This document shows positions 1 to 18,651 of a DNA stretch of 64,000 nt, piece by piece. The first letter of the stretch is position 1, and every line of letters begins with the position of its first letter. The DNA is from an uncultured Candidatus Binatia bacterium (lineage in GTDB: Bacteria; Desulfobacterota; Binatia; UBA9968; JAJDTQ01), in assembly GCA_965242525.1 (NCBI GenBank), contig OZ251459.1:3136001-3200000 (forward strand). Reading direction: 5' to 3'. The position numbers were made by a program, and so were the translations under genes. The notes below the pieces were generated by a model that did not search any database, was not told where the DNA came from, and saw only the letters and a program-made list of their open reading frames with translations.

Positions 1-1
1 C

Positions 2-1270
2 GATGTCATCGAGGCGTTCCGACTTACCGATGGTGAAGATACGCAGGAGATCCGCCCCCTCGTCATCTTCGATGATGCGCATAGCCTCCATCCTACTCAA
101 CTCAAAGCTCTTCGACGTTGGCTTTCGCGGCGTGAACTCAAGGTCTCAAGATGGGTCCTGACCCGATTCGATGCATTGAACCCGAGAGACGTACTTTTGG
201 ATCAGGCAATAAACGCCGATGAATTGGGTGAATCTGGGATCAAGCCCTCACGCGAAATCACCATTATTTGGATGCAAAGCGGTGAAGAGCGCAGGAGGCA
301 GCGGCAGGAGTTTCGCAAAATGGCCAAGGACATGGCGGGACGCTACCTGAGACAAATGGAAGTGTTCAACCGCCGCGGCCTCGACAACCTTGGCGATCTA
401 CTGTCAACGAAACCTAAGTTGCTTCCAGCCGGTAAGCGCCAGCAACTCGCAAAACACGTCGATACCCTGCAACGCCGGTACGGGGTCTCAAGCGAGCGAC
501 GCCGTGAGTTTGAGAAGGAAGTCAACGATTACCTAGCCAATACGGATGAGAAGGGCCAAGACTTGCGACTCGGAATTTTATCGGTGTTGTTCGAGCGCTA
601 TGCTAAACGGACACAACCTGGCCTGTTCGAAGACGTCTCCAGCAATGCCGAACCTAGCCGACCGTTGAAGGTCAACGCCGGGGTTGCGGATGGAGCACGC
701 ATCCACTTGCTGCACAGCTACGAACGACCTTATTTCTTCGGCATTGACACCTTGTGCGACGCGAGTTCGGAGAATGCAGAACAGTTTCTCCAACTCGCAG
801 GCCGTCTCGTCTCGCAGTGTGAAACCCATCTCATTCGCGGCAAGGAACCAATGCTCACGAGTGATTTCCAAGATAAGCTGTTGCGGGAACGCGCAACTGA
901 GATGGTGCGTGAGTGGAACTTTCCACAGTGTCAACTCGTTCGTCGGCTCGCAAACGGCATTGCGGAGGAATGCCTGACCAAGAGCCTGGAGGGCAACGCA
1001 TCGCTCGGTGGCGGCGCTACCGCCTTTGGAATCCCACAAGAGGAGTTTGAAGCCATTCCCGAAACTCATCCTCATTTGGCGCAAGTTCTCCAATTCGGAG
1101 TTGCCTACAACGCGTTGGTATTGGCACCTAACTATGGCACCAAGAAGCGCTTTTGGTGTCTGATCGAACTCGGTGGCATACTCCTGCTCTGCCATGGGCT
1201 GACGCTCAAACGCGGTGGCTTCCTTGAGCGTCGCACCGACGATCTGGTGCGACTGCTTGATGAGAGGTGA
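2..1270 (+). CDS. P-loop NTPase (ORC/CDC6- or STAND-like), 5'-truncated by window edge
   Basis: Frame is open from nt 2 (DVIEAFRL...). Walker-B-like PLVIFDDAH lies upstream of the ORF-track start at 176. Helical and wHTH-like C-terminus. Lower GC than flanking genes. Family assignment is inference. Confidence 0.6.
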   Translation, partial: DVIEAFRLTDGEDTQEIRPLVIFDDAHSLHPTQLKALRRWLSRRELKVSRWVLTRFDALNPRDVLLDQAINADELGESGIKPSREITIIWMQSGEERRRQRQEFRKMAKDMAGRYLRQMEVFNRRGLDNLGDLLSTKPKLLPAGKRQQLAKHVDTLQRRYGVSSERRREFEKEVNDYLANTDEKGQDLRLGILSVLFERYAKRTQPGLFEDVSSNAEPSRPLKVNAGVADGARIHLLHSYERPYFFGIDTLCDASSENAEQFLQLAGRLVSQCETHLIRGKEPMLTSDFQDKLLRERATEMVREWNFPQCQLVRRLANGIAEECLTKSLEGNASLGGGATAFGIPQEEFEAIPETHPHLAQVLQFGVAYNALVLAPNYGTKKRFWCLIELGGILLLCHGLTLKRGGFLERRTDDLVRLLDER

Positions 1271-1271
1271 G

Positions 1272-2387
1272 ATGAGCCACAAACGTCGCTGGGATCCCTG
1301 TGTTGCCCACCGCGGCAATGAAGTGGGCGAGTTCCTCTACCACTATTTTACACAGCCGGATCGGAAAGTTTTTCTTGTAGCAGGTGCCGGCTTCGACCCC
1401 CGCTCACCTATCGTTTCCGCTCGGCTCAGCAACACTTCCGCGAGTGTGCGTGGGCTACTCATCCAAGAAAAACGCCCCAATCCGTTGCAGAACCAATCGG
1501 ACCGGGCAGATGCAAACACGAAGATTCTTCTCACCATGCTCACTGACCCACAAGTGGTGCCGGTCGAGATCTTCGGACCGGGTGGTGCGGTAGTCGGCGG
1601 ACGCAACATTGTCAGCTTCCTCAGCCAGCAAGACTTGGAGAGCGTGACGGACGTAATCGTCGACGTCAGTGCCCTATCGACAGGCACGAGTTTTCCGATC
1701 ATCCGATACTTCGCTGAGGGTATAGGCCAGAGTAAGGGACATGCCAATCTGCATGTATTCGTTGTTCACGACCCGCGCCTAGATGATGATATTCGATCCA
1801 TATACAGCGATGTACCCAACTACGTCCACGGCTTCAAGGGCCGCTCAACCCTATCTGACACGGCCGACGCGGCGAGGCTGTGGTTGCCACAGTTGGCTAC
1901 CCGACGACGCAACGCGCTCCGACTGCTTTATGGCTTCATCCATCCCCACGATACGTGCCCCATCTTTCCCTTTCCAGCGAGCGATCCTCGTCTCGGGGAT
2001 TTGCTAGCGGAGGAGTATCTGATCGAGATCGAAGACACCTGGGAGGTCGATACACGCAATATCGTCTACGCCGACGAAGATGATCCGCTAGATCTCTATC
2101 GAACAATTCTCAGGCTGGACGACCTTCGCAGGCCTGTTTTCGAGGAAACAGGGGATTCGATGCTCATCCTTTCCCCACTCGGCAGCAAAGTGATGGCTCT
2201 GGGCGCGCTGATGGCGGCACTGGAGCGTAATTTACCTATCGCCCATCTGGAGCCCATCGGCTACGAACTGGAAGAAACAGTACCCGAGAGGATTGACCAG
2301 CCAAATCTCATACACATATGGCTGGAAGGGGATGTTTATCCCCAACCTCGACCCGCGTTGACGACGGCAGGGGCCGTCGCGCGATGA
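1272..2387 (+). CDS. Hypothetical protein, two Rossmann/CARF-like alpha-beta units
   Basis: ATG directly after the upstream stop (1-nt gap). Motifs VFLVAGAGFDPR, VIVDVSALS and LILSPLGSKVMALGALMAA. ATGA overlap with the next gene. Confidence 0.6.
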   Translation: MSHKRRWDPCVAHRGNEVGEFLYHYFTQPDRKVFLVAGAGFDPRSPIVSARLSNTSASVRGLLIQEKRPNPLQNQSDRADANTKILLTMLTDPQVVPVEIFGPGGAVVGGRNIVSFLSQQDLESVTDVIVDVSALSTGTSFPIIRYFAEGIGQSKGHANLHVFVVHDPRLDDDIRSIYSDVPNYVHGFKGRSTLSDTADAARLWLPQLATRRRNALRLLYGFIHPHDTCPIFPFPASDPRLGDLLAEEYLIEIEDTWEVDTRNIVYADEDDPLDLYRTILRLDDLRRPVFEETGDSMLILSPLGSKVMALGALMAALERNLPIAHLEPIGYELEETVPERIDQPNLIHIWLEGDVYPQPRPALTTAGAVAR

Positions 2388-3472
2388 CCTCTGCTACTCA
2401 ACCAAAGATCTTCGGAGCAGGCCTGATAGCTCTCGACTGTGTTGTCGGCCCCGACCCCGAGACGCCTGTTCGCCATTGGGCGGGTGGAACCTGTGGCAAC
2501 GTGCTCTCCATTCTGGCTTGGCTCGGATGGAATGCTTATCCCGTAGCGCGTATGAACGGTGACAGTGCCTCCGAGTGCGTTCGCACGGACATGGCACGCT
2601 GGGGTGTCCATCTCGATTGGATCACATGCGCTCCCACTGCTGACACTCCTATCATTGTCCAGAAAATCCAACGTGGGCGGGATGGCCGGCCCAGGCATCG
2701 GTTCTCCTGGTTGTGCCTGCGCTGTGGTGAAGGGCTACCGCCCTTCAAGGCGATTACCCTCAACGTGGTGGAGAGGATCAGGCCGGCTCTTGCCGATGCA
2801 TCGGTGTTCTTCCTCGATCGCCTGTCGCGCGCAACCCTCACCTTGGCCGCCGAGGCCTCTGCTCACGGTGCCGTGGTGGTGTTCGAGCCATCTAGCAAGA
2901 AGGCGACAGACAAGCTCATGGCGGAAGCGATTTCACTCGCTCACATCGTCAAGTACGCTGACGACCGCATTGCCCGCATCAGCGGCGTAATGGCAAATGA
3001 CTCTGCGGTACTGCTCGAAGTGCAGACCCTTGGGGATCGAGGCCTGAGATACCGCCATCGGCTCGGCCGCGGCATCTCCAATTGGATGTATCTCAAGGCC
3101 GTTCCTGCGCCGCGTCTTGCCGACACCTGCGGCTCTGGTGACTGGTGTACGGCTGGCCTGCTTGCCAAAATCACAGCCGACGGGCAGAAGGGTCTGCGCC
3201 GTGCCGGTGCCCGCGGCGTTCGGGCAGGACTCCGCTATGGGCAGGCACTCGCAGCCTGGAGTTGTAGTTTCGAAGGCGCGCGGAGAGGTATGTACTCCGT
3301 TTCCCGAGAAGCATTCGAAAATCAGATCACAAGTTTGCTTAACGGTCAAACCGCCGGCATCAACGATGCTCCGGTTGGAAATGTTCCGGCACAGGTAGTG
3401 ACCTGCCCAGCCTGTCCTCCTGTGCGACAAAAGTCGCGTCCTCCAAAAGGCGCGCTGTCATTCCGTCTTTGA
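2384..3472 (+). CDS. PfkB/ribokinase-family kinase with extra CxxC motifs
   Basis: AGGTCGNV (PfkB signature 1-like) and DTCGSGD (anion hole/catalytic Asp). CLRC insertion and C-terminal CPAC. Confidence 0.85.
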   Translation: MTSATQPKIFGAGLIALDCVVGPDPETPVRHWAGGTCGNVLSILAWLGWNAYPVARMNGDSASECVRTDMARWGVHLDWITCAPTADTPIIVQKIQRGRDGRPRHRFSWLCLRCGEGLPPFKAITLNVVERIRPALADASVFFLDRLSRATLTLAAEASAHGAVVVFEPSSKKATDKLMAEAISLAHIVKYADDRIARISGVMANDSAVLLEVQTLGDRGLRYRHRLGRGISNWMYLKAVPAPRLADTCGSGDWCTAGLLAKITADGQKGLRRAGARGVRAGLRYGQALAAWSCSFEGARRGMYSVSREAFENQITSLLNGQTAGINDAPVGNVPAQVVTCPACPPVRQKSRPPKGALSFRL

Positions 3473-3629
3473 ATTACATGGACGGCGTGTAGTCTCCTGG
3501 TGTGGATGGGTCACTTACGGTTGGTCGCGTCCTGTCTCAGGCTGTGCGACCGACTATCCGTATGGGAACGGTCTCGCATCGCTCCCTCCCTTGACTGTCT
3601 CTCTACCCTGTCTCACCTCCTTTCCTTCC

Positions 3630-3654
3630 TACCCACACAAAAGCCGGAAGAGCC
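3630..3654. repeat. IS-end-like motif TACCCACACRAAAGCCGGAAGAGCC, copy 1
   Basis: 24/25 identical to 5969-5993. The reverse complement of its end (GGCTCTTCCGGCTT) occurs at 46109. Confidence 0.7.
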
Positions 3655-3702
3655 ACATGGATTAGGTGGTGGATTGAGACAGGCGGCGCGCCGGCCGCTG
3701 GC

Positions 3703-4725
3703 TCACGGCTTCGCCGACGTCCTTGCGCGGCGGTTCCGCTGGTACTTGGCGACGGCCCGGTTGTGTTCCCGGAGGCTGCGGGAGAAATGGTGGCTGCCGT
3801 CGTTCCTGGACACGAAATACAGGTACTCGACGTCGGCCGGAAAGAGCGCCGCGTTCATGGCGGCCATACCGGGGTTGGCGATGGGACCGGGAGGCAGGCC
3901 CCGGATACGGTAGGTGTTGTAGGGGTCCCGGCGGCGGAGGTGGCGGCGCGTGAGGTTGCCGTCGAAGTCCTCGAGGCCGTATATGACCGTGGGGTCGCTC
4001 TGGAGGCGCATCCCCCGCTTCAAGCGGTTGTGGAAGACCGCGGAGACCAGGGGGAACTCGTCGGTCGGGCCGCCTTCCTTTTCGATGATGGAGGCCAGGG
4101 TGACCGCCTCGTGCCGGGTCATGCCCAACTCCTGCGCCCGCGCTTCCATTTCGGGAGTGAACCTGTCCTCGAACTCCGCGAACATGGTCTTGACGATCTC
4201 TTCTTCCGTGGCGAGGACGCGGAAATGATAGGTGGAAGGGAACAGGTAGCCTTCCAGGCTTTCGGTCGGGAGGGAGGCGAGGAGGGCCGGCTCGCCCACC
4301 GCCGCGGCGAACCTCTCCGGCGTCACCAGTCCCCTGCCCACCAGGAGCCGTCCGATCTGCCGGACGGTGAAGCCCTCGGGAACCGTGACCTTGTGGACCA
4401 CGGTCCGGCCCCGCACGAGCCCGTCGAGCACCGCCGCGGGCGACACCGCCCCCTCGAAGCGGTAGATGCCCCGGTGCATCCTGGTGTCGAGTCCGCGAAG
4501 CCGGGCCCACAACGCGAAGAGCCGGGGCTGCGAGACCAAGCCCTTCCGGTGGAGCTCGCGGGCCACCGCGGCGAACGTGTCGCCGCGCCGCACCTCGACC
4601 TCCACCACCTCCGAGTGGCCTTGACGGGGGGTCAGCAGGAACCCGGACACGTAAGCGGCGACCAGGAGCGCCGCGGCCAGAAGGAGGCCGCCGGCAACGA
4701 GAACGTTTCGAGTGGTCTGTGACAT
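3703..4725 (-). CDS. mltG: Endolytic transglycosylase MltG (YceG)
   Basis: N-terminal TM anchor; LEGYLFPSTY, LASIIEKE, LQSDPTVIY, YNTY-x3-GLPPGPIANPG, YLYFVS. Confidence 0.95.
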   Translation of the reverse strand: MSQTTRNVLVAGGLLLAAALLVAAYVSGFLLTPRQGHSEVVEVEVRRGDTFAAVARELHRKGLVSQPRLFALWARLRGLDTRMHRGIYRFEGAVSPAAVLDGLVRGRTVVHKVTVPEGFTVRQIGRLLVGRGLVTPERFAAAVGEPALLASLPTESLEGYLFPSTYHFRVLATEEEIVKTMFAEFEDRFTPEMEARAQELGMTRHEAVTLASIIEKEGGPTDEFPLVSAVFHNRLKRGMRLQSDPTVIYGLEDFDGNLTRRHLRRRDPYNTYRIRGLPPGPIANPGMAAMNAALFPADVEYLYFVSRNDGSHHFSRSLREHNRAVAKYQRNRRARTSAKP

Positions 4726-4855
4726 GCGATCACGGGCAAGACCCACGGGCGGCGCCGGCAAGGCACGGCGGCGAGGCCGTCATGGACGAGAGCTGAAGAA
4801 CGGTTCCCGGTCCGCAATCCGTCGTTCCAATTCCGGATACCCGGTCCTTGCAGCC

Positions 4856-5545: not shown

Positions 5546-5639
5546 GGCTCCACCCCGCCGGGAAGTATGCCACCAGCAAACGGGGCCATGTCAACCCTGT
5601 CGCCGCAAGGGGCAGCGTGCCGGGGTCTGGACAACGATC

Positions 5640-5803
5640 CCCGTTCGTCCTGAGCGTAGCCAAGCGAAGCTCCCCCGTTCATCCTGAGCATGGCGAAGCG
5701 AAGACCCCTCATTCATCCCGAGCAAGCGAAACCTCCCATTCATCCTGAGCAAGCCCCCCTCCCGTTCGTCCTGAGCGTAGCGAAGCGAAGTCGAAGGACG
5801 CGC
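5640..5803 (+). repeat. Tandem array of 5 full or partial REP-like cores
   Basis: CCRTTCRTCCYGAGC... units separated by 3-6 nt C-rich linkers. Confidence 0.85.
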
Positions 5804-5968: not shown

Positions 5969-5993
5969 TACCCACACGAAAGCCGGAAGAGCC
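5969..5993. repeat. IS-end-like motif, copy 2
   Basis: TACCCACACGAAAGCCGGAAGAGCC, preceded by a pyrimidine tract as at 3630. Confidence 0.7.
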
Positions 5994-6901: not shown

Positions 6902-7041
6902 GGAACCTCTGGACAATCGAGACATCCAGGATGGATTCCCGATTCCCTCGCCCTGACGCCTTTATCCCCGTTCATCCTGAGCGTAGCGAAGCGAAGTCGA
7001 AGGACGCGCTCATGCCCCTGTCCCGATCGTTCGGAGGTTCC
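6902..7041. mobile_element. MITE-like element (140-bp variant)
   Basis: GGAACCTCTGGACAATCG...CGATCGTTCGGAGGTTCC. Highly similar to 22323-22463 and 47637-47771. Confidence 0.8.
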
Positions 7042-7058: not shown

Positions 7059-9575
7059 TCACTGGTAGTCGGCCAGCGTCTCGGGGAATTCGGCTTCGTC
7101 GAAGACTAGGCGGAAAGTGCCCTTCGCCGGTCCGTCGTGGATCTGCATCCGGCCCACGTGGAACGCCCGTTCCAGGGTTTCCAGCACCTTGCGTTTGTAA
7201 ACGGTGTCCGGGTTGTCGCGCAGGTGCTCGCCCTTGGTCTCGAACACCAGCAGGTGCGGCTTGCCCGCGCTCCTGCCCGCCATGGCGATGAAGTCGGGAT
7301 AGATGCGCTCCCGCCGCCAGCCGCGCAGGTGGTATTCACCCTGCTGGCGGACGGCCACCCGGTGCCACCAGCGCAGCGCCTTCTGTTCGTCGAGGTAGCA
7401 AGCGAAACGCCGCTCCAGCTCGGTGTCGAACTGCCGCTCGAACACCGGCTCGAACAGGTTGAGTTGCATGGGCTGGCCGCCGAACCGCTGAAAGGTCCGG
7501 TCGGACTCCGACACCGGTATCTCGTAGCTCTCGCGCATCCGGTAACGGGGCACGCCGGCGTCCAGGTCGAAACGGATCCTCCGCCGCGTCAACTTGTCGC
7601 GGAACATCCGTTCCGCCATCCGTTCCACGCCGTCGATCACCGATTCCCGCAGCGCATAGGCGAGATGGGAACGGCGGTCGTAGATCCTGCTTTCCTCCTC
7701 GCCCGTCTCCCGCAGTCGTTGGAGCAGGGTGCGGGCGATGCCCGCGGCGTGCCAGGGGTTGGGCACCACGTCGGACAGCCGCCGCACGAAATAGGACGTC
7801 CGCACCGTCTTGTCGATCCGGAGGTCCCGGGACCCTCCCGGGGAGGCCACCGCCTCGTCTTCGCCTACGTCCACGGACGCCGTTTCTCGCCGCGCCGCGG
7901 TGGGCAGGGATCTCGCGGGGTCCGGCGGTTCGATCTCCTCCCAGTCGATGGCCGGCAGGATGTCGCGGTGGTAGTCCAGGTCGCGCCAGCCGGCGCCGTC
8001 CCGATGCAGCACCCTGGGCAGGAAGATGTCGGCGCCGCGAAACTGCTCCCGCCGCCGCACTTCCACGATGTGCAGCTTGGCGCCGCTCCCCGTCACCTCG
8101 TCGCCAAGGCCGGTCAACCCCTCCCGTTCCAGCCCCTGCTTGATCTGCTCCACCGCCCCGGCCACGTCCATGTTCCAGCAATAGACCGCGCACCGGTCCA
8201 ACGGTTCCCGCCCGGTGCGGCGCGCGTGGGGCTGGCGCATCACCCGCCCCACCAACTGCGTCAGCGCCCGCTGCGCCCGGGTCGTGTCCAGCATCACCAG
8301 CAGGTAGGCGAAGGGGCAGTCCCACCCCTCCATCAGCGCCGCGCGGGTGATGATCCACCGCACCTGCGAGTACTCGGAGAGCAGGTCCTCCTTGCCCAAC
8401 TCGTCGTTCTCCGCGGACTTCACCCGCACAGCCTCCGCGGGCACGCCGAGGTTGCGGGTCAGGTACTCGCGCACGTCTTCGGCGTGGATGCGTTCGCCGT
8501 CGCGCTGGTCCTTGCCGGTGCGCTCCACCCGCACCACCGCGATGGGGCGGATGTAGCGCCCTTCGCCCATCTGGAGCGATTCGGCTTCGGCGCGCAGCCG
8601 CTCCAGTTCCTCGGCCGCTTCGCCAAGGGTGTGCCGCCACTCGGCGTTGGTGAACGATTCCACCCGCACCGGCAGCTTGATCATCTCCTCGTGCTTCAGA
8701 TCGACGCCGGAGACGTCCACCAGCAGGTTGCTGACGGCGCGGTTCGGCGTGGCCGACAACTCGACCACCAGGCTGGGGTCCAGGCGGTTGACGGAGCGCA
8801 CGAACTCCTGGGCCGCGGCGGGTTTGCCGTAAGCCTTGTGGGCTTCGTCCAGCACCACCACCGGGCGCAGCATCTTGAAGACGTTGAACAGGCTGTGCTT
8901 GACCGGCCCTCCGTCCGAAGTGCGTTCGAGTTCCGGGTAGCGGCGCAGCAGGCGGCCGTCGCCCAGGGCGTCGTCGCTGTCGGGAAACAGCGTCGGGTAG
9001 CGCCCCGAGTCGCGGAACATGCGCAGGAACTCCCTGCCCTTCTGGCGGTTGGCGGCCGGCAGCATGAGCAGCATCACGCACAGGTAGTGGGCGACGTCCG
9101 CGGCGGTGAACGGGGCGTCCTTCTCCAGCATCTTGACGCGCCCGCCACTGGCCCGTTCCAGCATCTGGCGGTAGGGATGCTCGCGGCTCCACAGCGCGGT
9201 CCTGGTCTGCTGGTAGATGGCTTTGGTGGGGGTGATCCACAGGGTGAGGCCGGCGGGCCGGTTCATCCGTTCCAGCGCCGCGGCGGCAAGCAGCGTCTTG
9301 CCGCCGCCGGTGGGCACCTTGAAGCAGACGTGTGGGATGGGAAAGCCGGCGTCCGCGGTGCGGTCCGCGTAGTCGCCGCCGCCCGCGACCCCGCCGGCCT
9401 GGGCCAACTTCCGCCACGCGGTCTTCGGGTAGTTGCCCAGATCCGGGGGAAGATCGACCCCGGCCTTTTGCAGCGCTTCGACCGCGGCCGCGGACTCCCT
9501 GCGCGCGTCGTCGAGAGCGGCCAGCCAGCGGCTGAACGCCTCCAGCGCTCGCGTCTGGTACTCCTTCAACTCCAT
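7059..9575 (-). CDS. res: Type III restriction enzyme Res subunit (SF2 helicase + PD-(D/E)xK nuclease)
   Basis: VPTGGGKT, DEAH, EGWD, QLVGRVMR, C-terminal YPDF...FETKG. Directly downstream of a DPPY methylase. Confidence 0.9.
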   Translation of the reverse strand: MELKEYQTRALEAFSRWLAALDDARRESAAAVEALQKAGVDLPPDLGNYPKTAWRKLAQAGGVAGGGDYADRTADAGFPIPHVCFKVPTGGGKTLLAAAALERMNRPAGLTLWITPTKAIYQQTRTALWSREHPYRQMLERASGGRVKMLEKDAPFTAADVAHYLCVMLLMLPAANRQKGREFLRMFRDSGRYPTLFPDSDDALGDGRLLRRYPELERTSDGGPVKHSLFNVFKMLRPVVVLDEAHKAYGKPAAAQEFVRSVNRLDPSLVVELSATPNRAVSNLLVDVSGVDLKHEEMIKLPVRVESFTNAEWRHTLGEAAEELERLRAEAESLQMGEGRYIRPIAVVRVERTGKDQRDGERIHAEDVREYLTRNLGVPAEAVRVKSAENDELGKEDLLSEYSQVRWIITRAALMEGWDCPFAYLLVMLDTTRAQRALTQLVGRVMRQPHARRTGREPLDRCAVYCWNMDVAGAVEQIKQGLEREGLTGLGDEVTGSGAKLHIVEVRRREQFRGADIFLPRVLHRDGAGWRDLDYHRDILPAIDWEEIEPPDPARSLPTAARRETASVDVGEDEAVASPGGSRDLRIDKTVRTSYFVRRLSDVVPNPWHAAGIARTLLQRLRETGEEESRIYDRRSHLAYALRESVIDGVERMAERMFRDKLTRRRIRFDLDAGVPRYRMRESYEIPVSESDRTFQRFGGQPMQLNLFEPVFERQFDTELERRFACYLDEQKALRWWHRVAVRQQGEYHLRGWRRERIYPDFIAMAGRSAGKPHLLVFETKGEHLRDNPDTVYKRKVLETLERAFHVGRMQIHDGPAKGTFRLVFDEAEFPETLADYQ

Positions 9576-11498: not shown

Positions 11499-11927
11499 TC
11501 AAAGGAGCGGGTTCACCCACCGCAGGCCGGGAAACCGCGCCATGTCCGCGTCGGTCGAATGGATCTCGGCCTGATGCTCGATCGCCAGAGCGGCCAGGTG
11601 TGCATCCGTCGTCAGATTGCCGCTGGTTCCAGTCGCCTCGATGAGCTTGAACAGGATATCCGAATGACGCGCACCGGGATGAACGACGATCGCGTTGGGC
11701 CGGGCGAGCCAGGCTCGGACGCGAGCGCAGGCGTTATTCGCCTCCAGCGGGTTTTCGAGGATCCTCGGATGTGTCGCAATGCGAATGAATCCCAGAATCA
11801 CGATCCAGGGAATACCGACGCTGCCCGCCCCGTTCATCAATGCTTCCCACCACTCGCGTGCAGACTCGTGCCGGCGAGCACCCGAGTCGTGGGCGTACAC
11901 CAGGAGGTTGACGTCGGGAATGATCAC
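11499..11927 (-). CDS. vapC: VapC-family PIN domain toxin
   Basis: IPDVNLLVYA...GNLTTDAHLAALAIE...STDAD. Confidence 0.92.
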   Translation of the reverse strand: MIIPDVNLLVYAHDSGARRHESAREWWEALMNGAGSVGIPWIVILGFIRIATHPRILENPLEANNACARVRAWLARPNAIVVHPGARHSDILFKLIEATGTSGNLTTDAHLAALAIEHQAEIHSTDADMARFPGLRWVNPLL

Positions 11928-12184
11928 CGTTCGAGCTTTCGAGAGGATTCCGCGGCCTCCAACTCGTCCGCGAGTTGATTGAGACGGTCGGTGTCCACGC
12001 CCGCCTTGAAGACGAAGGCGTGGGGTTCGACCTTGAAGGGGGGCAACCTCGGCGGCTTGCCCTGGGCGCCGAGGCCGCGCCGCAAGGCATCGTTCACGAC
12101 CGTCTTCATGTTCCTGTCGGTACGCCGCATCTCCTGTTGCAGGAGCTGCGCGACGTCGGGATCGATCGTCAGGGTAGTCCGCAT
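11924..12184 (-). CDS. vapB: VapB-type RHH antitoxin
   Basis: MRTTLTIDPDV...VVNDALRRGL, 86 aa, 4-nt overlap with the PIN gene. Confidence 0.88.
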   Translation of the reverse strand: MRTTLTIDPDVAQLLQQEMRRTDRNMKTVVNDALRRGLGAQGKPPRLPPFKVEPHAFVFKAGVDTDRLNQLADELEAAESSRKLER

Positions 12185-12190
12185 GAAAGC

Positions 12191-12219
12191 ATCCTGATAC
12201 GCACGGGAATGGAAGTCAA
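12191..12219 (-). promoter_or_regulatory. Putative promoter giving a leaderless vapBC transcript
   Basis: TTGACT-17 nt-CAGGAT, 6 nt before the ATG, no RBS. Confidence 0.5.
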
Positions 12220-12252
12220 GGTGCGGGGTGCGTGGCGGCGGCGCGGCCCCGG

Positions 12253-13356
12253 TCAGGCCTTCGGCACCGCCAGCGTGTGGTTGGCCTCGAACACCAGATC
12301 GACTTCCAGGTCGTCGGGTGCGGCGAAGTCCGGGGCGGCCTTGGCTTGGATGAGGGTCTCGCCCACCAGGACGTCCACGCGGCAGGAGTCGCCCAGGAAC
12401 GCCACGTGGCGGACCCTGCCGGAAAGACGGTTGCCGCCCGCTCCCGGCTCCGCGGCCGACAACCGGATGGCTTCGGGGCGGATGGAGACGGCCACCCGGT
12501 CGCCGTTCCGCATGGCTCCGGTCTTGATGCAGGCCAGCGTGCGGCCCTGGGCGACCTCCACTTCCGCGGCGTCTCCGTCGATGCGCGCCACCTTGCCGTC
12601 CAGCAGGTTGGTGCTGCCCACGAACTTGGCCACGAAGTCGTTGGCCGGGCGGAAATAGATCTCCCTGGGCGTGCCGGTCTGGATGACGTTGGCCTGGTCG
12701 ATCACCGCGATGCGGTCCGACAGGGTGAGGGCCTCGGCCTGGTCGTGGGTGACGTACACGGTGGTGATGCCGATCTGCCGTTGCAGGCGCTTGAGCTCCA
12801 CCCGCATCTCTTCCCGCAACTGGGCGTCGAGGTTGGACAGGGGCTCGTCCAGGAGCAGCAGGCGCGGCGTCTTGACTATAGAGCGGGCCAGGGCCACCCG
12901 CTGCTGCTGGCCGCCCGACAGCCGGGTCGCCGGGCGGGACTGGAAGCCGGCCAAGTCCACGGTCCGCAACGCCTGGTCCACCGCGGCCTCGACCTCGCTC
13001 CGGGAATACCGGCGGTCCTTCGCCACGGTCAGCGGGAAGGCCACGTTCTCGGCCACGGTCATGTGCGGCCAGATGGCGTAGGACTGGAACACCATGCCCA
13101 CCTCGCGCCGGTTCATGGGCACGTTGACGCCCGCGGCCGAGTCGAACAGCACGTCGCCCTCCACCGCCACCCGGCCCCGGTCCGGGGTCTCCAGGCCGGC
13201 GAGGCACCGCAACGTGGTGGTCTTGCCGCACCCCGAGGGTCCCAGCAGGGTGAAGAACGCGCCGTTCTCCAGCGAGAACGAAGCGTTGCGGATACCCCCC
13301 GCGATGGCGTCCGTGGTGTTGGCGAAGATTTTGGTCAGCCCCTCGATCTCCAGCAT
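12253..13356 (-). CDS. ABC transporter ATP-binding protein (Fe3+/polyamine class)
   Basis: GPSGCGKT, LSGGQQQR, LLLLDEP, TOBE-like tail. Confidence 0.93.
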   Translation of the reverse strand: MLEIEGLTKIFANTTDAIAGGIRNASFSLENGAFFTLLGPSGCGKTTTLRCLAGLETPDRGRVAVEGDVLFDSAAGVNVPMNRREVGMVFQSYAIWPHMTVAENVAFPLTVAKDRRYSRSEVEAAVDQALRTVDLAGFQSRPATRLSGGQQQRVALARSIVKTPRLLLLDEPLSNLDAQLREEMRVELKRLQRQIGITTVYVTHDQAEALTLSDRIAVIDQANVIQTGTPREIYFRPANDFVAKFVGSTNLLDGKVARIDGDAAEVEVAQGRTLACIKTGAMRNGDRVAVSIRPEAIRLSAAEPGAGGNRLSGRVRHVAFLGDSCRVDVLVGETLIQAKAAPDFAAPDDLEVDLVFEANHTLAVPKA

Positions 13357-13371
13357 GGCATGACCCCCGGT

Positions 13372-15576
13372 CTATTGGCCCGCGTCGTCACGCTCCGCGC
13401 CGGCGAGCACCACCAGGGCGTCGAGGGCGACGCCGCCCCGCGGGCGCAGCACGAACGGGTTCACGTCGATGGACTCCAGCCGGCGGCCCAGGTCGCAGGC
13501 GAGCCGCGACACCGCCACCAGCGCCTTGACCGCCGCCTTCCGGTCCAGGGCCGGCGCCCCCCGGTACCCGTCCATGAGCCGCGCGGCCCTGGTGCGCGCG
13601 ATCAATGCCTCGGCGTCGGCCTCGCGGAGTGTGGGCGCGGCAAAGGCCACGTCGCGGTAGAGTTCCAGCGCCGCCCCGCCCGACCCGAACATGACCACGG
13701 GTCCCATCTCCGGGTCACGCGACGCGCCGATGACCAGCTCCAGGTCCCCGGCCATGTGCTCGGCCACCAGCACGCCGTCCACGGCCGCCCCCCCGGCCTT
13801 GCGGGCGACGTTGCGCAGGACCGCGCCGTAGCCCCGGCGCACCGCGGCCGCGGTGCGGACGTCCAGCAGCACGCCGCCCGCGTCCGACTTGTGGGTCAGC
13901 TCCGCGCCCGCGGCCTTCAACACCACCGGGAACCCCAGGCCGCGGGCGACCCGCGCCGCCTCCGCAGCGCTCCGGGCCAGCCGCTCCCTGGGCGTCCGCA
14001 CCCCGTAGGCCCGGAGCAACTCCTTGGAATCCACTTCCGACAGGGGCGTGGGTCTCGGCCCGCCGCGGGTCCTCTCCAGCCGCCTCCGCACGGCCGGCGG
14101 CGCCGTCCACCCGCGGCGCCGCTTCCCCGCGGCTTTCCTCGGCGACCGCATGGCGTAGGAGATGACCGACCGGACCGTGCGCAGGGACTTGTCCGCTTCC
14201 TGCAGGAACGCTACGCGGCGCAAGCCGTCGCGCAGGTTGCGGGCGTAGTCGTTCAGGCCGTGGGAGATCATGGTGACGAAGACGATGGGCTTGCGCGCCC
14301 GGGCCGCCAGCTCGTTGACGGCGCGCATGTTGTGCTCCTTGTCCCCGCCTTCGGGGGCCCGCAGCAACTCCTCCTGCAACAGCAGCGTGTCCACCCCGGG
14401 GTCGTGGAGCATGGTCTCCACGCAACGGATGTAGGTCTCGCGGCTGGTCAGCGCGCCAAAGCCCGAGTCCAGGGGGTTGCCGATGACGGCGCCGACGCCG
14501 AGCAGCTTTTCCAGGCGCTTGCGGGTCCCGGAGGCGAGGGGCGGGAACGACAGGCCGTTGGCCTCGGCCTGGTCCAGCAGCACCCCGCGGAGCCCGCCGG
14601 AGAAGGTCATGGCACCCAGCCCGCCGCCCCGGGGCAGCCGGGCGTGGAGCAGGTACTCGGCCATCTCCACCACGTCGTCGAGGGTCGCCACGCGCACCGC
14701 GCCCGCGTCGCCGGCGACCGCGTCGAACGCGGCGATGGACCCGGCGAGGGCGCCCGTATGGGCCAGGGCGGCGGCCCGGCCGTGGTCCGAGGTCCCGAGC
14801 TTGACCACGATCACCGGCTTTCCGGCTTCCCGGGCCGCGGCGCAGGCGGCCAGGAAGCGCTCGGGCTCGCGTACCGCCTCCAGGTAGGAGACGATGACCC
14901 GGGTCTGCGGGTCCGCGGTGAAATACTCGATGTAGTCCGCGGTCTTGAGCCCGGCCTCGTTGCCGCTGGTGACCACGTAGCCCACCGCCATGCCGCGCTC
15001 TTCGAGGGTGCGCTTGAGCGCCATCACCAACCCGCCGGACTGCCCGACGATGGCGACGGGGCCGGCCTCGGTGGGCTGCGGCCGGTTGTCGGTCATGGTG
15101 ACGAAGCGGGCGCGGCCGTTGAAGTTGCCGAGGCAGTTGGGACCGGAAACCGCGATGCCCAACTCCGCCACCGCGGCGGAGAGGCGCCGGCCGCGCTCCA
15201 TGGCCGCGGGGTCGGGGGATTCGTCGAAACCCGCGGACACCACCGTGGCGCTGCGCGCCCCCGCGGCCGCCCCCTGGCGCAGGGTCGCCTCCACGAACGG
15301 CGCCGGCACGAACACCGCCAGGTGGTCCGGCGGCTCCGGCAACTCGGCGTAGCTCCGGTAGCACCGCACTCCCCAGACCTCCTCGCGCCGCGGGTTGAGG
15401 GGATAGACCGAGCCCCCGTAGCCGTAGCGTCCGAGGTTGCGCCAGCAGCGCTGGGCCCAGTTCCCGGGTTTGTCGGTGGCCCCGACGATGACCACGTTGC
15501 GCGGGTCGAGCAGCGCCTCCACGTCGGGGCGCGGGGTGGTTGCCGGCGGCGGAGGCGGGGAGTTCGACGGACTCAT
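13372..15576 (-). CDS. Acetate--CoA ligase family (NDP-forming acyl-CoA synthetase) with ATP-grasp domain
   Basis: CoA-binding N-terminus, GPNCLG, QSGG, HTGALAG, HKSDAGGV, DVNP. Confidence 0.9.
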   Translation of the reverse strand: MSPSNSPPPPPATTPRPDVEALLDPRNVVIVGATDKPGNWAQRCWRNLGRYGYGGSVYPLNPRREEVWGVRCYRSYAELPEPPDHLAVFVPAPFVEATLRQGAAAGARSATVVSAGFDESPDPAAMERGRRLSAAVAELGIAVSGPNCLGNFNGRARFVTMTDNRPQPTEAGPVAIVGQSGGLVMALKRTLEERGMAVGYVVTSGNEAGLKTADYIEYFTADPQTRVIVSYLEAVREPERFLAACAAAREAGKPVIVVKLGTSDHGRAAALAHTGALAGSIAAFDAVAGDAGAVRVATLDDVVEMAEYLLHARLPRGGGLGAMTFSGGLRGVLLDQAEANGLSFPPLASGTRKRLEKLLGVGAVIGNPLDSGFGALTSRETYIRCVETMLHDPGVDTLLLQEELLRAPEGGDKEHNMRAVNELAARARKPIVFVTMISHGLNDYARNLRDGLRRVAFLQEADKSLRTVRSVISYAMRSPRKAAGKRRRGWTAPPAVRRRLERTRGGPRPTPLSEVDSKELLRAYGVRTPRERLARSAAEAARVARGLGFPVVLKAAGAELTHKSDAGGVLLDVRTAAAVRRGYGAVLRNVARKAGGAAVDGVLVAEHMAGDLELVIGASRDPEMGPVVMFGSGGAALELYRDVAFAAPTLREADAEALIARTRAARLMDGYRGAPALDRKAAVKALVAVSRLACDLGRRLESIDVNPFVLRPRGGVALDALVVLAGAERDDAGQ

Positions 15577-15594
15577 GGGCGGCGCGTGGATGGG

Positions 15595-17307
15595 TCAGTT
15601 GCCGTAGGCGGTGGCGCCGGTCTGGCGCGCCGTGTAGTAGAACAGGCTCGCGATCACGGTCATGACCGCGGTCCACACCAGTCCCAGGGCCGCCAGCTCG
15701 GTGCCCTGCCCGTTGGTCCAGAGGTCGAACATCTCCACCGCCACCATCTGCGAGTCCGGCCCCGACAACAGGATCGGCAGCGACAGCACCCGGGCGGCCA
15801 GCAGGAAGATGAACAGCCAGCCCGAGAGCATGGCCGGGGCCAGCAGCGGCGCGACGATGCGCCGCAGCGTGGTCATGGGGGAGGCGCCGCACACGCCCGC
15901 GGCCTCTTCCAGCTCGTGGTGTATCTGCAACATGCCGGCGTAGGAATACCGCATGCCGTAGGGCAGGTAGCGGATCACGAAGGCGATGACCAGGATCCAC
16001 ACGGTGCCGTAGATGGGGATGGGCACCTGGAGGTAGATCTGCATCACCGCCACCCCCAGCACGATGCCGGGGAAGATCAGCGGCATGGTGGCGAGCTGGT
16101 CGAGGACCCATGCCCCGGCCTTGCGGCGGGCGGCGAACCATCCGGCCACCAGGGTGATGGCCATGGCCGCGGTGGCCGAGACCGCGGCCACGAACAGCGT
16201 GTTCCACAGCAACCCCAGGTAGTAGTCCGCGTCCAGCACCGCCCGGTAGTTCTCCAGCGTGAAGAGGGAAAACCCCCGCAACCGCACCGGCTGGAAGAAC
16301 GGCAGGAACGAAGCCCACAGCAGCGCCAGCAGAGGCAGCACCAGGATCACGAAGAAGTTGACCAGCACCACCGCGGTGGCCACGTGCCGGCCGCGGCCCA
16401 GGTCGAACATGCGGGCGCGGTACCCCTTGCCGGTCACCGTGTGGTAGCGGTCGGCGCTCTTGGACAGCCGGTTGTAGAAGGCCAGCAGTATGCCCACCAC
16501 CACCAGCAGGAAGACCGAGAACGAACTGGCGTGCCCGAAGTCCGGGGGCACCACGTCCGACAGGTCCAGGTAGATGTCGGTGGTGAGCACGTGGATCTTT
16601 CCCGGCAGCCCCACCAGGGCCGGGACCTCGAACGCCTCGATGGCGCGGATGAAGACCAGCAGGGCCAGGGCCAGCACCGAGGGCAGCGCCAGCTTGAGGG
16701 TCACGCGCCGTATGGTGTCCCACACGCTCGCCCCGCAGATGCGCGCCGCCTCTTCGTATTCCGGGTTGCTGGTGCGGAACGTGGCCGAGAGCAACAGGAA
16801 CACCAGCGGCGACCAGAGGAACCCCTCCACCAGGATCATGCCGCTCATGGAATAGACGTTGATCAGCACCCCGTCGCTGCCGGTGACCAGGCGGTAGAGG
16901 TCGTTGATGGGTCCGGCCTTGCCGAGCAGGAAGAGCCACGCGCTCACGTAGAGGATGAAGGGGGTCCCCAGGGAGATGATGGTGGTGAGGTAGGCCAGCC
17001 ACTTGAAGGCGGCGTTGGTGCGCTCCACCACCCAGGCCAGCATGGCCCCGAACAGGAGCGCCACCGCCGAGCTGCCCACCGCGAACACCGTCGAGTTCAG
17101 GCTGCTGGTGAACAGCGCGGGTTCCCGAACCAGCCGGCGGTAGTACTGGAGCGTCAGCTCGCCCCGGCTGAAGTCGGCGTTGGTGGTGTAAAAGCTGCCC
17201 TGCACCAGGAACCAGATGGGCGGCAGCACCAGCAGGGCGATGAGCACCGCCAGCAGGAGGCCCGGAACCGCGTATTCGGTCTGTCGCAATCGGAACCACC
17301 CCGGCAT
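15595..17307 (-). CDS. ABC transporter permease (two fused TM modules, Fe3+-type)
   Basis: Two EEAA...GAS loops, about 12 TM segments. Confidence 0.92.
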   Translation of the reverse strand: MPGWFRLRQTEYAVPGLLLAVLIALLVLPPIWFLVQGSFYTTNADFSRGELTLQYYRRLVREPALFTSSLNSTVFAVGSSAVALLFGAMLAWVVERTNAAFKWLAYLTTIISLGTPFILYVSAWLFLLGKAGPINDLYRLVTGSDGVLINVYSMSGMILVEGFLWSPLVFLLLSATFRTSNPEYEEAARICGASVWDTIRRVTLKLALPSVLALALLVFIRAIEAFEVPALVGLPGKIHVLTTDIYLDLSDVVPPDFGHASSFSVFLLVVVGILLAFYNRLSKSADRYHTVTGKGYRARMFDLGRGRHVATAVVLVNFFVILVLPLLALLWASFLPFFQPVRLRGFSLFTLENYRAVLDADYYLGLLWNTLFVAAVSATAAMAITLVAGWFAARRKAGAWVLDQLATMPLIFPGIVLGVAVMQIYLQVPIPIYGTVWILVIAFVIRYLPYGMRYSYAGMLQIHHELEEAAGVCGASPMTTLRRIVAPLLAPAMLSGWLFIFLLAARVLSLPILLSGPDSQMVAVEMFDLWTNGQGTELAALGLVWTAVMTVIASLFYYTARQTGATAYGN

Positions 17308-17413
17308 CTGGCCAGCCTCCGCCTCCGTGCGGCGCGCGCGGGCGCCGGATCGTCGCAGAAGGACGGGAAAGGGAGGGCGCCGTCAGCGGCTTGGCCGCGG
17401 CGCCCCTCTCCGG

Positions 17414-18460
17414 TCAGCGGAACAGGTCAGCGTGGATCTTCTTCCACTTGGCGAGCTCGCGGTGCACCATCTTGAGGGGCATGGTGTTGGCCCTGAAGCC
17501 GCCTTCCCTGGGCTTGAGGGTGGGCTCCAGCGCCGGCACGTCCGGGTGGGCCGGCAGGTAGTTGGCCTGTTGCAGCACCTTCTGGCCTTCCAGCGACAGC
17601 ATGAACTCGATCAGGAGCTTGCCCGCGTTGGGATGGGGCGCTCCCTCGATGACGCCGATGGCGGCGATGTTGCTGGTCACCGGCTCCATCTTGATCCAGT
17701 CCACCGGCGCGCCCTTGTTGCCGCTGATCACCGTGTGGTGGTTGAAGATCTGCAACGCGATGGGGTACTCGCCGGCAATGGCCTGGTCGAGCACCTTGCG
17801 CGCGCTGGCGCTGACCGGGATGATCTCCTGCTTGGCGAGCTTCCGCAGGTAGGCCATGCCCTTCTCTTCGCCCATGGTGATGAGGACGTTGCCGATGAAG
17901 CCGGCCGCGCCGGAGGTGGTGGATCTGGGGCTCCATGCCATCTTGCCCCGCCACTTGGGGTCGAGGAGGTCCTCGTAGGTCTTCGGCGCCTCGGCCCTGG
18001 AGACCAGGCTGGTGTTGTAGCCCGGGGTCAGGAAGTAGAGGTGGGTCGCCGACCAGTACCCTTCCGGGTCCCGGAACTCGGCCGGGTACATGGCCGAGTT
18101 CTTGGGCATCCACTTCTCCACGAGGTTGGCGTCCTTGAGGGCTTCCGCGTTGGAGGTCCCGTCGAACACGTCGCCCAGGATGCGGTTGGCCTTCCCCTCG
18201 CTGAGGATCTTGATGGCCGTGTCGGACGAGTTCGCCCGGGAGTAGCGCACCTTGATGCCGGGGTACTTCTTCTGGAACGCCGCAACGATGGGCCGCACCG
18301 CCTGCTTCACGATCAGCGTCGTGTACCAGACGAGCTCGCCTTCCTTCTTCGCCGCCTCGTAGAGCCTGGCGTCGGCGAACGCGGTGGTCGCCGCCATGGT
18401 CAGCACCAACCCGAGTGCAGCCGCACGCAGCAATGATCTCATGACGATTGCCTCCCTCAT
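17414..18460 (-). CDS. ABC extracellular solute-binding protein
   Basis: Signal peptide; AAKKEGELVWYT, DLLDPKWRGK, APHPNAGKL. Confidence 0.9.
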   Translation of the reverse strand: MREAIVMRSLLRAAALGLVLTMAATTAFADARLYEAAKKEGELVWYTTLIVKQAVRPIVAAFQKKYPGIKVRYSRANSSDTAIKILSEGKANRILGDVFDGTSNAEALKDANLVEKWMPKNSAMYPAEFRDPEGYWSATHLYFLTPGYNTSLVSRAEAPKTYEDLLDPKWRGKMAWSPRSTTSGAAGFIGNVLITMGEEKGMAYLRKLAKQEIIPVSASARKVLDQAIAGEYPIALQIFNHHTVISGNKGAPVDWIKMEPVTSNIAAIGVIEGAPHPNAGKLLIEFMLSLEGQKVLQQANYLPAHPDVPALEPTLKPREGGFRANTMPLKMVHRELAKWKKIHADLFR

Positions 18461-18547
18461 GGTGGTTTGCCCCTCCGGTCACGGGTGCCCGGGAACCCGG
18501 CCCCGAACCTGTCAGTACGCCGGTAGCCTCGAATTGTCAATCGGCAT

Positions 18548-18650: not shown

Positions 18651-18651
18651 C

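Follow-up and report, generated by a model that had tools for sequence, protein, structure and literature searches.

The window analysed here, a stretch of 64 000 nucleotides from the genome of an uncultured Candidatus Binatia bacterium, opens inside a group of closely spaced genes that lie to the left of mltG. A sequence-only reading of the window had taken them for an uncharacterized three-gene conflict operon comprising a P-loop NTPase, a CARF/Rossmann-like protein and a Zn-ribbon PfkB kinase. The question raised by the locus is whether these genes do form such an operon and what that operon would do.

Gene order and borders of the island

The two gene junctions within the window were confirmed at 1268–1272, where the stop codon of the ATPase gene (1268–1270) is followed one base later by the ATG of the CARF6 gene (1272), and at 2384–2387, where the end of the CARF6 gene (2387) and the PfkB ATG (2384) form an ATGA overlap; the 1 nt gap and the overlap by which the three genes had been described as coupled are thus both present. 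The start residue of CARF6 is the same as in its homologues (alignment A1). The frame of the first gene is open at the 5′ edge, as had been noted, and the gene starts ∼640 nt 5′ of the window. More genes had been suspected upstream, and the neighbouring sequence shows two co-directional genes before the ATPase gene. In the 5′→3′ direction the operon encodes a SIS-like::HAD phosphatase, PRTase-CE, an ORC/CDC6-like ATPase, the CARF6 protein and a PfkB kinase (Table 1). The first two genes share an ATGA overlap at L002:14199, and a 12 nt gap separates PRTase-CE from the ATPase gene. The linkage of the original three genes stands, but the operon has five, the first two and the 5′ end of the ATPase gene lying upstream of the window, and the three-gene reading is weakened because it leaves out PRTase-CE, the likely effector, together with the SIS::HAD protein that partners it.

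Table 1. Features of the cassette and of its right border (window positions unless a sequence name is given)
Feature	Coordinates	Strand	Details
SIS-like::HAD-IIB phosphatase	L002:12259-14202, upstream of window	co-directional	647 aa; Hydrolase_3 3.1e-8
PRTase-CE	L002:14199-15347, upstream of window	co-directional	382 aa; PF24390 5e-16
ORC/CDC6-like AAA+ ATPase, full gene	G000:C1:3135360-3137270 (L002:15360-17270)	+	636 codons; PF24389
ATPase gene, part inside window	2..1270	+	3′ two-thirds, 422/636 codons
CARF6-family protein	1272..2387	+	371 aa; PADLOC PDLC01916
PfkB-family kinase	2384..3472	+	362 aa; Pfam PF00294
Dispersed repeat copy	3569..3668	-	Abuts right edge of low-GC island; contains motif 3630-3654

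The operon is held by a low-GC island of 7.6 kb with a GC content of 54–66%, compared with roughly 65–80% for the chromosome. Over window positions 1–3400 the GC fraction is 0.54–0.62 versus 0.66–0.72 over mltG (3601–4800), in agreement with the earlier remark that the genes are less GC-rich than mltG.

An IS-end-like motif had been pointed out near the end of the three genes. This 25-mer was found in 77 copies in the genome at up to three mismatches (38 forward and 39 reverse; reversed-pattern control, 0), and the 230 nt spacer matches 39 further places, the four longest matches extending over about 82–100 nt. When five copies were aligned, the repeat on the minus strand ended in the Shine–Dalgarno-like GGGAGGGAGC and then ATGCGAGACCG, diverging afterwards from the longer copies. 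One examined copy (L030) is situated just upstream of an ORF that starts with MRDRELYARILGIEAPWRV, carries a CPEC zinc-finger-like motif and presumably encodes an ISL3-like transposase. At the left border of the cassette no copy of the repeat was found, and it therefore does not bracket the island; what survives of the IS-end proposal is a dispersed repeat, one copy of which adjoins a putative transposase ORF.

Proteins encoded by the cassette

PRTase-CE matched PF24390 with 59.8 bits (cut-off 27), residues 54–377 aligning with profile positions 3–253 of 253, and matched the PADLOC model PRTase_III-A with an E value of 5.3e-11. Its PRPP loop, LIDDFxxSGT, is preserved, with D195, D196, F197 and G201 invariant in 15 sequences. 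G332 and P347-N348-N349 are also invariant in these 15 sequences and fit the retron-type Gx14PNN motif; the closing proline of PNNxP in the retron motif varies here. Passages of PMC12746101 describe the Gx14PNN motif for the PRTase effector of Retron-Eco11 and report that activation of this effector is accompanied by about 50% less PRPP. PRTase-CE is likely to be the effector of the cassette.

The full-length ATPase matched Pfam PF24389 with an E value of 4.9e-11 and 42.5 bits (cut-off 27), while the fragment inside the window alone reached 25.5 bits against the same cut-off of 27. The Walker A motif reads GTPGSGKT, with G53, G55 and K56 invariant in 15 sequences. The Walker-B-like VIFDDAH that had been picked out in the first gene is present, its Asp pair corresponding to D238 (invariant) and D239 (at least 90% conserved) in the same set of homologues. 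With both motifs intact and PF24389 above cut-off, the assignment of the first gene as an ORC-CDC6-like P-loop NTPase holds.

The CARF6 protein gave no match in the Pfam search. It matched the PADLOC profile PDLC01916 with an E value of 3.9e-128 (residues 9–358 on profile positions 2–344 of 345) and PDLC01910 with 3e-91. The AlphaFold2 model (mean pLDDT 95.8) consists of two Rossmann-like domains, of which the C-terminal one (about residues 195–360; pLDDT 90.1) resembles CARF domains and contains the SPLGSK motif. A structure search of the PDB with the C-terminal domain returned Cam1 (8t64) as the best match (E 7.8e-7, TMq 0.57); ranks 1–10 were all Cam1 and Card1 chains (E 7.8e-7 to 1.9e-3, TMq 0.43–0.57), with Csm6, Can2 and Csa3 following among the matches listed. 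For the N-terminal domain, a second CARF fold found no support in the comparisons made: the whole chain, used as a query, first returned tandem USP and cation-chloride-transporter C-terminal domains at a low TMq of 0.20–0.26, and an hhalign comparison of the N- and C-terminal halves gave no match (probability 0.2%). CARF domains typically have, behind strand 4, a conserved motif that contains a basic residue. Here, the motif LSPxGSK follows the strand 296–301, with K306 at least 90% conserved and G311 invariant in 83 sequences; the SPLGSK-MALG stretch singled out earlier is present. The modelled C-terminal domain is CARF-like in fold, and the original placement of the second gene in the CARF family is upheld by the PDLC01916 match and by the solved CARF domains that make up the ten best PDB matches. 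No signal synthase (cyclase, Cas10 or CD-NTase) was found in the operon or among the product names of ten annotated plasmid loci. Sensing of a nucleotide by the second gene product, and the making, recycling or detoxification of that ligand by the PfkB kinase, as proposed in the sequence-only reading, are hypothetical.

Co-folding of ATPase residues 1–636 with CARF6 residues 1–360 gave ipSAE values of 0.81, 0.77 and 0.80, compared with 0.15 for the best of three controls; contacts agreed by at least 83% between runs, and the partner pLDDT was at least 86. In calibration, 58 of 80 solved complexes and two of 110 mismatched pairs attained the mark applied to co-folds, counts that are only roughly valid because own alignments were used. 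The ATPase and CARF6 may thus bind each other, a model score being supportive of this contact.

The HAD part of the first protein, of the HAD-IIB (Cof-type) group, matched Pfam Hydrolase_3 with 34.1 bits (cut-off 20.9), and its motifs DYDGT (D399, D401, G402 and T403), K560 and G580-D581 are invariant in 15 sequences. The N-terminal 380 residues gave no Pfam SIS match, and a homologue (L009) matched Pfam SIS only below cut-off (0.0088). The profile of the SIS-like family found 2aml, a 'SIS domain protein', in the PDB (E 9e-4, positions 8–247), and the nearest named clusters in the Atlas are SIS at 0.86–0.88, a value at lead level only; the SIS assignment is accordingly weak. Invariant charged residues in this part are K144, D145, E229, D239, R241, H245, R247 and H248.

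The third gene of the original reading does encode a PfkB kinase, matching Pfam PF00294 with an E value of 9.9e-12 and 45.2 bits (cut-off 25.8). Its catalytic DTxGxGD motif is intact, reading DTCGSGD, and D18, G34, G35, N39, D247, G250, G252 and D253 are invariant in 12 homologues. The best NCBIfam match, ribose-1-phosphate kinase, lies far below cut-off (29 versus 330 bits). The cysteines behind the proposed Zn ribbon are real, but C111, C114 and a C-terminal CPAC make up a split, partly conserved site and no conserved ribbon: C111 is invariant in the homologues, CxxC occurs in nine of 12 and a C-terminal CPxC in seven of 12. Judged by their motifs, the HAD and PfkB accessory enzymes look active.

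Linkage and distribution

Homologues of SIS::HAD, PRTase-CE, the ATPase and CARF6 occur together in 14/14 other loci examined, at 20–79% identity, their order taking four forms. Of these loci, 11 have PfkB, seven have NADAR and all 14 have at least one of the two; the three loci lacking PfkB have NADAR instead, and judged by gene content PfkB is dispensable there. The co-occurrence expected for the three original genes is therefore seen for the ATPase and CARF6 in every locus and for PfkB in 11/14, in a set picked via CARF6 homology, which is silent on the frequency of the other genes in loci that lack CARF6. Fused forms of the cassette proteins were not found in a weak search.

Outside the genome studied here, the CARF6 family was detected in two of 400 genomes from the phylum and, at a different chromosomal place, in one of 27 from the genus, and no cassette protein was found within 1.5 kb of mltG in any of nine congeners. 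The family occurs in 19 plasmid records (nine conjugative, one mobilizable and nine non-mobilizable) and in no phage record. Among the genes neighbouring the cassette are those for integrases, Mrr, SIR2, RES and a caspase-family protein, as well as IS elements. The cassette is horizontally mobile and sporadic.

In a search with the profiles of PADLOC-DB 2.0, only the CARF6 and PRTase_III-A models matched and no complete named defence system was recognized, in keeping with the earlier statement that the locus is no named system; the ATPase, SIS::HAD and PfkB gave no significant match (none better than E 0.0018). The label 'uncharacterized' is correct in so far as no bench test of the cassette was found in the literature searched, but the component families are already catalogued by comparative genomics as predicted conflict parts (PF24389, PF24390 and PADLOC CARF6).

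Function of the cassette

In the reading that we prefer, and to which we give an even chance, the five genes make up one copy of a mobile cassette of immune (conflict) type in which CARF6 and the ATPase switch on a PRPP- or nucleotide-depleting retron-type PRTase and sugar-phosphate enzymes process the ribosyl products or the ligand. The stand-alone two-domain CARF6 would dock on an insert in the NTPase domain of the ATPase and act as its small-molecule sensor; upon binding, or loss, of the ligand the ATPase would switch or oligomerize and then activate PRTase-CE, a putative type I phosphoribosyltransferase like the effectors of type III-A retrons. Consumption of PRPP and/or nucleotides by the PRTase would stall both invader replication and cell growth. 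On the ribose-phosphate side, the SIS-like::HAD phosphatase might make the drain irreversible or process the PRTase product, and PfkB and/or the NADAR N-glycosidase might either act on ribosyl products, resetting or detoxifying them, or turn the CARF ligand over. Several points count against an immune-type role: the four enzymes come from mostly metabolic families, catabolic genes abound on the rhizobial plasmids that make up many of the carriers, no signal synthase was seen in the operon or named in the ten annotated plasmid loci, and the ATPase, SIS::HAD and PfkB lack a significant PADLOC match.

PRTase-CE, HD-CE and Calcineurin-CE reportedly form an effector set of predicted conflict systems, as set out by Nicastro, Burroughs, Iyer and Aravind in Nucleic Acids Res in 2023. 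The second and third genes of the cassette, with matches to PF24390 and PF24389 above cut-off, link it to the predicted PRTase-CE/ORC-CDC6-like systems, with which it would share the idea of a nucleotide-targeting effector under an NTPase switch. With type III-A retrons (Retron-Eco11, type III-A3) it shares Gx14PNN and the acidic pair of the PRPP loop, and passages of PMC12746101 associate activation of the retron PRTase effector with PRPP depletion and abortive infection. Identity with a type III-A retron was rejected, since no reverse transcriptase was found by Pfam among the five cassette genes or by annotation in the ten plasmid loci. The cassette PRTase further differs in lacking a wHTH tail and in the final residue of PNNxP, and control would lie with the ATPase and CARF6 instead of an RT–msDNA complex triggered by phage helicases. 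The CARF sensors of type III CRISPR–Cas systems (Cam1, Card1, Csm6, Can2 and Csa3) have in common with CARF6 the fold of its C-terminal domain and the conserved G-S-K motif after strand 4; they are homodimers, whereas CARF6 has two unlike Rossmann-like domains in one chain, is not fused to an effector, has no Cas10 or cyclase nearby and has an AAA+ ATPase as its predicted partner. PUA-Calcineurin-CE-HAD of E. coli ECOR28 is likewise described, in excerpts of bioRxiv 10.64898/2026.01.15.699771, as a ligand-triggered, nucleotide-depleting immune module with a HAD phosphatase that acts on nucleotides; according to these excerpts it differs in its PUA sensor, which binds m6-dAMP, in its calcineurin-like effector and in having no ATPase, CARF, PRTase or kinase.

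An alternative that we regard as improbable retains PRTase-CE as the effector and has SIS::HAD and PfkB, with or without NADAR, make the CARF6 ligand from a sugar phosphate or ribosyl compound or convert it back, so that the messenger answered by CARF6 would be of phosphosugar or phosphoribosyl type and not a cyclic oligonucleotide. The enzyme set of the cassette resembles the GmhA–HldE–GmhB route to heptose-1-phosphate, which employs a SIS isomerase, a PfkB kinase and a HAD phosphatase. A CARF sensor is present and a cyclase absent, all 14 loci have SIS::HAD together with PfkB or NADAR as a further ribosyl-acting enzyme, and the many invariant charged residues of the SIS-like part suggest a real binding or active site. 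Against this, the substrates of the enzymes are purely conjectural, the NCBIfam matches of PfkB and the SIS assignment have the weaknesses given above, the loci lacking PfkB argue that no single kinase step is essential, and the weak search for fusions yielded none.

It is likewise unlikely that the cassette is an addiction or exclusion module of its carrier plasmids and islands, similar to a toxin–antitoxin pair, with PRTase-CE as the toxin, SIS::HAD, PfkB and NADAR as antidote enzymes that reverse its product or drain it away, the ATPase and CARF6 as regulators and phage protection incidental or absent. The plasmid records and the lack of phage records favour such a module, as do passages describing NADAR proteins as antitoxin-type reversers of ADP-ribosyl base adducts (PMC11125620, PMC12945103) and ShosT as the PRTase toxin of a toxin–antitoxin pair (PMC11961720). 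The cassette is nevertheless found in chromosomes too, including this one, a set of five genes that includes a STAND-like ATPase and a CARF sensor exceeds known addiction modules in complexity, and ShosTA itself defends against phage, so that the addiction and immune-type readings overlap.

A horizontally acquired operon for the salvage or catabolism of a nucleoside, ribosyl or phosphosugar compound, with the ATPase and Rossmann-like protein as regulator or chaperone and no conflict role, would suit PfkB, HAD-IIB, SIS and type I PRTase as classic metabolic families and the occurrence, among the carriers, of bacteria from soil and rhizosphere whose catabolic plasmids are large, but is very unlikely in view of the absence of a conserved transporter or classical regulator in the ten annotated plasmid loci, the extremely sporadic occurrence, the conflict-effector/retron-type rather than salvage family of the PRTase, the match of the second CARF6 domain to CARF sensors and the mobile and defence-type neighbours.

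There is a slim chance that the cassette has a non-cyclase messenger chemistry of its own, in which SIS-like::HAD and PfkB produce and clear a phosphosugar or phosphoribosyl small molecule, NADAR replacing or adding to the erasing activity, and in which ATPase-docked CARF6 senses this molecule. If so, what an immune switch under CARF control reads would be a sugar-phosphate signal, or the collapse of that signal in infection, and not a cyclic oligonucleotide.

Layout of the cassette and its borders

The ATPase frame is open up to the 5' edge of the window, and the sequence-only reading had allowed for further genes beyond it. This was borne out in L002 (16 kb of upstream DNA plus the cassette), in which the ATPase was completed (636 amino acids, Walker A GTPGSGKT) and two co-directional, tightly coupled genes were found 5' of its gene. 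The three coupled genes of that reading, with a 1 nt gap, an ATGA overlap and a lower GC content than mltG, were all confirmed in the sequence: the ATG of the CARF6 gene lies one base past the stop of the ATPase gene, the ATG of the PfkB gene lies within the stop of the CARF6 gene, and GC is 0.54-0.62 over the three genes versus 0.66-0.72 over mltG. In L002 the low-GC stretch, an island of 7.6 kb, has a GC content of 0.54-0.66 and the surrounding DNA of about 0.65-0.80. The five cassette genes span G000:C1:3132259-3139472.

Coordinates of the cassette, its surroundings and related copies
Feature	Sequence	Position	Strand	Remarks
First cassette gene	L002			647 aa; C-terminal HAD-IIB phosphatase domain (Hydrolase_3, 3.1e-8)
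Second cassette gene	L002			382 aa; PRTase-CE (PF24390, 5e-16)
ATPase gene (3' part)	window	2-1270
CARF6 gene	window	1272-2387
PfkB gene	window	2384-3472
Low-GC stretch	L002	~11,900-19,500
Sigma-70-like site	L002	12148-12176		TTGCCA-17-TATCAT
133-aa ORF	L002	11931-12332	+	upstream of and overlapping first cassette gene; no Pfam or PADLOC match
25-nt motif	window	3630-3654
25-nt motif	window	5969-5993
25-nt motif	source genome (G000)			75 further places
Short repeat	window	~5590-5800 and 6940-7010		see text
838-aa ORF	window	7059-9575	-	see text
CARF6 gene of a congener	G403:C1	633292-634335
Distant cassette copy	L009 (G309:C29)	2267-4496		see text

A sigma-70-like site was located 85 nt 5' of the first cassette gene, promoter-like sites being no commoner than chance (2 found, 2.1 expected); no terminator-like site was found 3' of PfkB. 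The 133-aa ORF is probably not a gene. No tRNA genes were found at the island, and no direct or inverted repeats above chance-size matches flank it. A clean empty site was not definable, the left-flank gene not adjoining mltG in nine congeners.

The 25-nt motif next to the PfkB gene (consensus TACCCACAC[A/G]AAAGCCGGAAGAGCC) has 77 copies in the genome with three or fewer mismatches, about equally divided between the strands; a reversed-pattern control gave none. Longer copies have about 100 nt in common, closing with a run that resembles a ribosome-binding site and with an ATG, which in one copy opens an ORF resembling an ISL3-type transposase. The window copy retains just the first four codons and no copy was found at the left border of the island, which makes the window copy a lone end fragment beside the island and not a transposon bracket.

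Elsewhere in the window the peptide …PF[VI]LSVAKRS… occurs at least three times in ORF translations in different frames, which points to a further short DNA repeat, dispersed or in tandem, within the intergenic DNA around a ThiD-like gene. In the translation of the 838-aa ORF a P-loop (KVPTGGGKT) is accompanied by a box of the DEAH type (VVLDEAHK), so that the protein resembles a helicase or one of restriction-subunit type. Its gene lies at a distance of 3.6 kb from the cassette and may be another one of defence type.

Conserved linkage and mobility

A single-protein search for related loci returned just two close loci. Fourteen other loci, found through CARF6, were compared: two Pseudomonadales MAG chromosomes, two genomes of the phylum of the window and ten of 19 matching plasmids, the last picked to cover a range of identities. 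Homologues of the SIS-like::HAD protein, PRTase-CE, ATPase and CARF6 were found together in 14/14 loci at 20-79% identity (tblastn), a count which, the loci having been found via CARF6, says nothing about the frequency of the other genes in its absence. The ATPase of one locus (L019) gave a partial tblastn match alone (E = 2e-6); the gene annotated for it there is of the size expected.

The order seen here (SIS::HAD-PRTase-ATPase-CARF-PfkB) recurs in six of the other loci. Three have PRTase-ATPase-CARF-SIS::HAD-PfkB, three have NADAR-SIS::HAD-PRTase-ATPase-CARF and two have SIS::HAD-PfkB-...-PRTase-ATPase-CARF. Because the linkage survives rearrangement, it argues for the cassette acting as one functional unit. 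PfkB is present in 11 loci and NADAR in seven (both in four), with at least one of the two in every locus. The co-occurrence expected of the three window genes held in all 14 loci for ATPase and CARF6; PfkB was replaced by NADAR in three loci. In the distant copy L009 the NADAR gene overlaps the SIS::HAD start and takes the place of PfkB; directly upstream there is a restriction endonuclease of the Mrr type that has a Top1-type zinc ribbon, and downstream a tyrosine recombinase.

Beyond this genome, the CARF6 family was found in two of 400 genomes of a sample of the phylum and in one of 27 belonging to the genus (G403), where the gene lies ~750 kb from mltG (1,382,927), which suggests an independent insertion within the same genus. 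No cassette genes were found at nine congeneric mltG loci (1.5 kb flanks), and no match to CARF6 turned up in the phage collection. Names from Methylobacterium, Microvirga and Bryobacterales are attached to close relatives (64-85% identity), a pattern that fits recent horizontal spread. Among the neighbours of the cassettes are tyrosine recombinases, IS3, IS66 and IS110 elements, TniQ, Mrr, SIR2, a caspase-family protein and RES. In this genome the locus forms an accessory island acquired by horizontal transfer.

Several cassette copies adjoin further genes of defence type: by annotation, a SIR2 family protein is encoded beside the Rathayibacter plasmid copy (L011), a caspase family protein with DUF4231 and DUF4145 proteins beside the Rhizobium plasmid copy (L012) and a RES family NAD+ phosphorylase beside the Sphingomonas plasmid copy (L017).

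Motifs, folds and predicted contacts of the cassette proteins

Gene 2 was matched over its full length by the PADLOC CARF6 model PDLC01916 (3.9e-128) and has no Pfam family. P0004 as the family query retrieved 1369 clusters at 90% identity (E ≤ 0.001), and at least 647 at 50% identity; all named clusters among the 1369 are called 'hypothetical protein', so that the family is widespread and large yet anonymous. The SPLGSK-MALG motif reported previously is present, with K306 and G311 conserved among 83 relatives. An AlphaFold2 model built with 83 diverse relatives (pLDDT 95.8) has two alpha/beta domains. A whole-chain search against the PDB returned universal-stress-protein domains in tandem, together with the tails of related transporters, and at TM values of 0.20-0.26 is uninformative on CARF membership. 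When the C-terminal domain was modelled by itself (pLDDT 90.1), CARF domains were its top PDB matches, led by Cam1 (E = 7.8e-7, TMq 0.57) and followed by Card1, Csm6, Can2 and Csa3; the CARF/Rossmann-like assignment of gene 2 is therefore borne out for this motif-bearing domain only. The N-terminal domain showed no profile similarity to it in an hhalign internal-duplication test.

The Walker-B-like VIFDDAH read earlier in the ATPase is also present; both of its Asp residues (D238 and D239) are conserved among 15 homologues, as is Walker A. Co-folding of ATPase 1-636 with CARF6 1-360 gave ipSAE values of 0.81, 0.77 and 0.80 (best control 0.15), with a contact agreement of at least 83% and a partner pLDDT of at least 86. 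Among 80 solved complexes 58 attain this mark, and among 110 mismatched pairs two do, counts that hold only roughly here because the analysis used its own alignments. The co-fold supports binding of the two proteins, with a predicted interface between ATPase 108-196, which lies between Walker A and Walker B, and CARF6 103-199; it includes ATPase 185-196 and CARF6 142-146 and 186-195.

PRTase-CE carries LIDDFxxSGT with D195 and D196 invariant, and G332 and P347-N348-N349 are likewise invariant. This pattern agrees with the Gx14PNN signature that PMC12746101 gives for retron PRTase effectors; the same paper associates effector activation in Retron-Eco11 with ~50% lower PRPP and abortive infection.

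In PfkB, D18, GG, N39 and DTxGxGD are invariant among homologues. The cysteines taken in the sequence-only reading for a zinc ribbon are there and are partly conserved (CxxC in 9/12 homologues, C-terminal CPxC in 7/12). The HAD part of the first cassette protein has invariant DYDGT, K560 and GD. Its N-terminal 380 residues look SIS-like from three weak lines: a family-profile match to 2aml ('SIS domain protein', E = 9e-4), a Pfam SIS match (0.0088) in one homologue, and nearest Atlas clusters that are SIS (0.86-0.88). A weak search, with 650-1130 residue fusions outside its range, found no fused or longer SIS::HAD forms.

Proposed action and its meaning

The best-supported reading, in which we place middling confidence, is that of an immune-type cassette. 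We infer its ligand control, direction of control, substrates and phenotype as follows: CARF6 would be the ligand sensor of an ATPase switch, the ATPase would turn on the PRTase-CE effector, and PRPP and/or nucleotides would be drained, while the SIS-like::HAD protein and PfkB or NADAR might take ribose-phosphate or ribosyl products, or the ligand itself, as substrates.

That the sugar enzymes instead make or erase the ligand of CARF6 is considered unlikely. The same low probability is given to a plasmid addiction or exclusion module; the family occurs on 19 plasmid records, and the copy described here is chromosomal in setting beside mltG. Plain metabolism is less probable still. The island stands outside the core metabolism of this genome. 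Ordinary sugar catabolism was rejected for PfkB, which accompanies the cassette in four gene orders and gives way to NADAR in 3/14 loci.

The view that this is not a recognised named system stands, the PADLOC models giving no complete named match for the locus. Its parts are already catalogued (Pfam PF24390 for PRTase-CE and PF24389 for the ORC-CDC6-like ATPase; PADLOC CARF6 models). The idea of PRTase-CE as an effector reportedly comes from Nicastro and co-workers in 2023, whose text or supplements may list this architecture already. Literature searches on PRTase-CE, Calcineurin-CE, CARF6 and PfkB with CARF, NADAR or HAD returned no paper on, and no experimental study of, the cassette.

To our knowledge, CARF sensors are understood almost solely as receivers of cyclic oligoadenylates made by Cas10. 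The CARF protein here stands alone, with predicted docking to an ORC/CDC6-like ATPase and without a cyclase, and is accompanied by a retron-type PRTase and ribose/sugar-phosphate enzymes. The ligand of CARF6 would reveal what 'orphan' CARF systems sense in the absence of a cyclase, and would show whether ATPase-CARF control can govern PRPP or nucleotide depletion.
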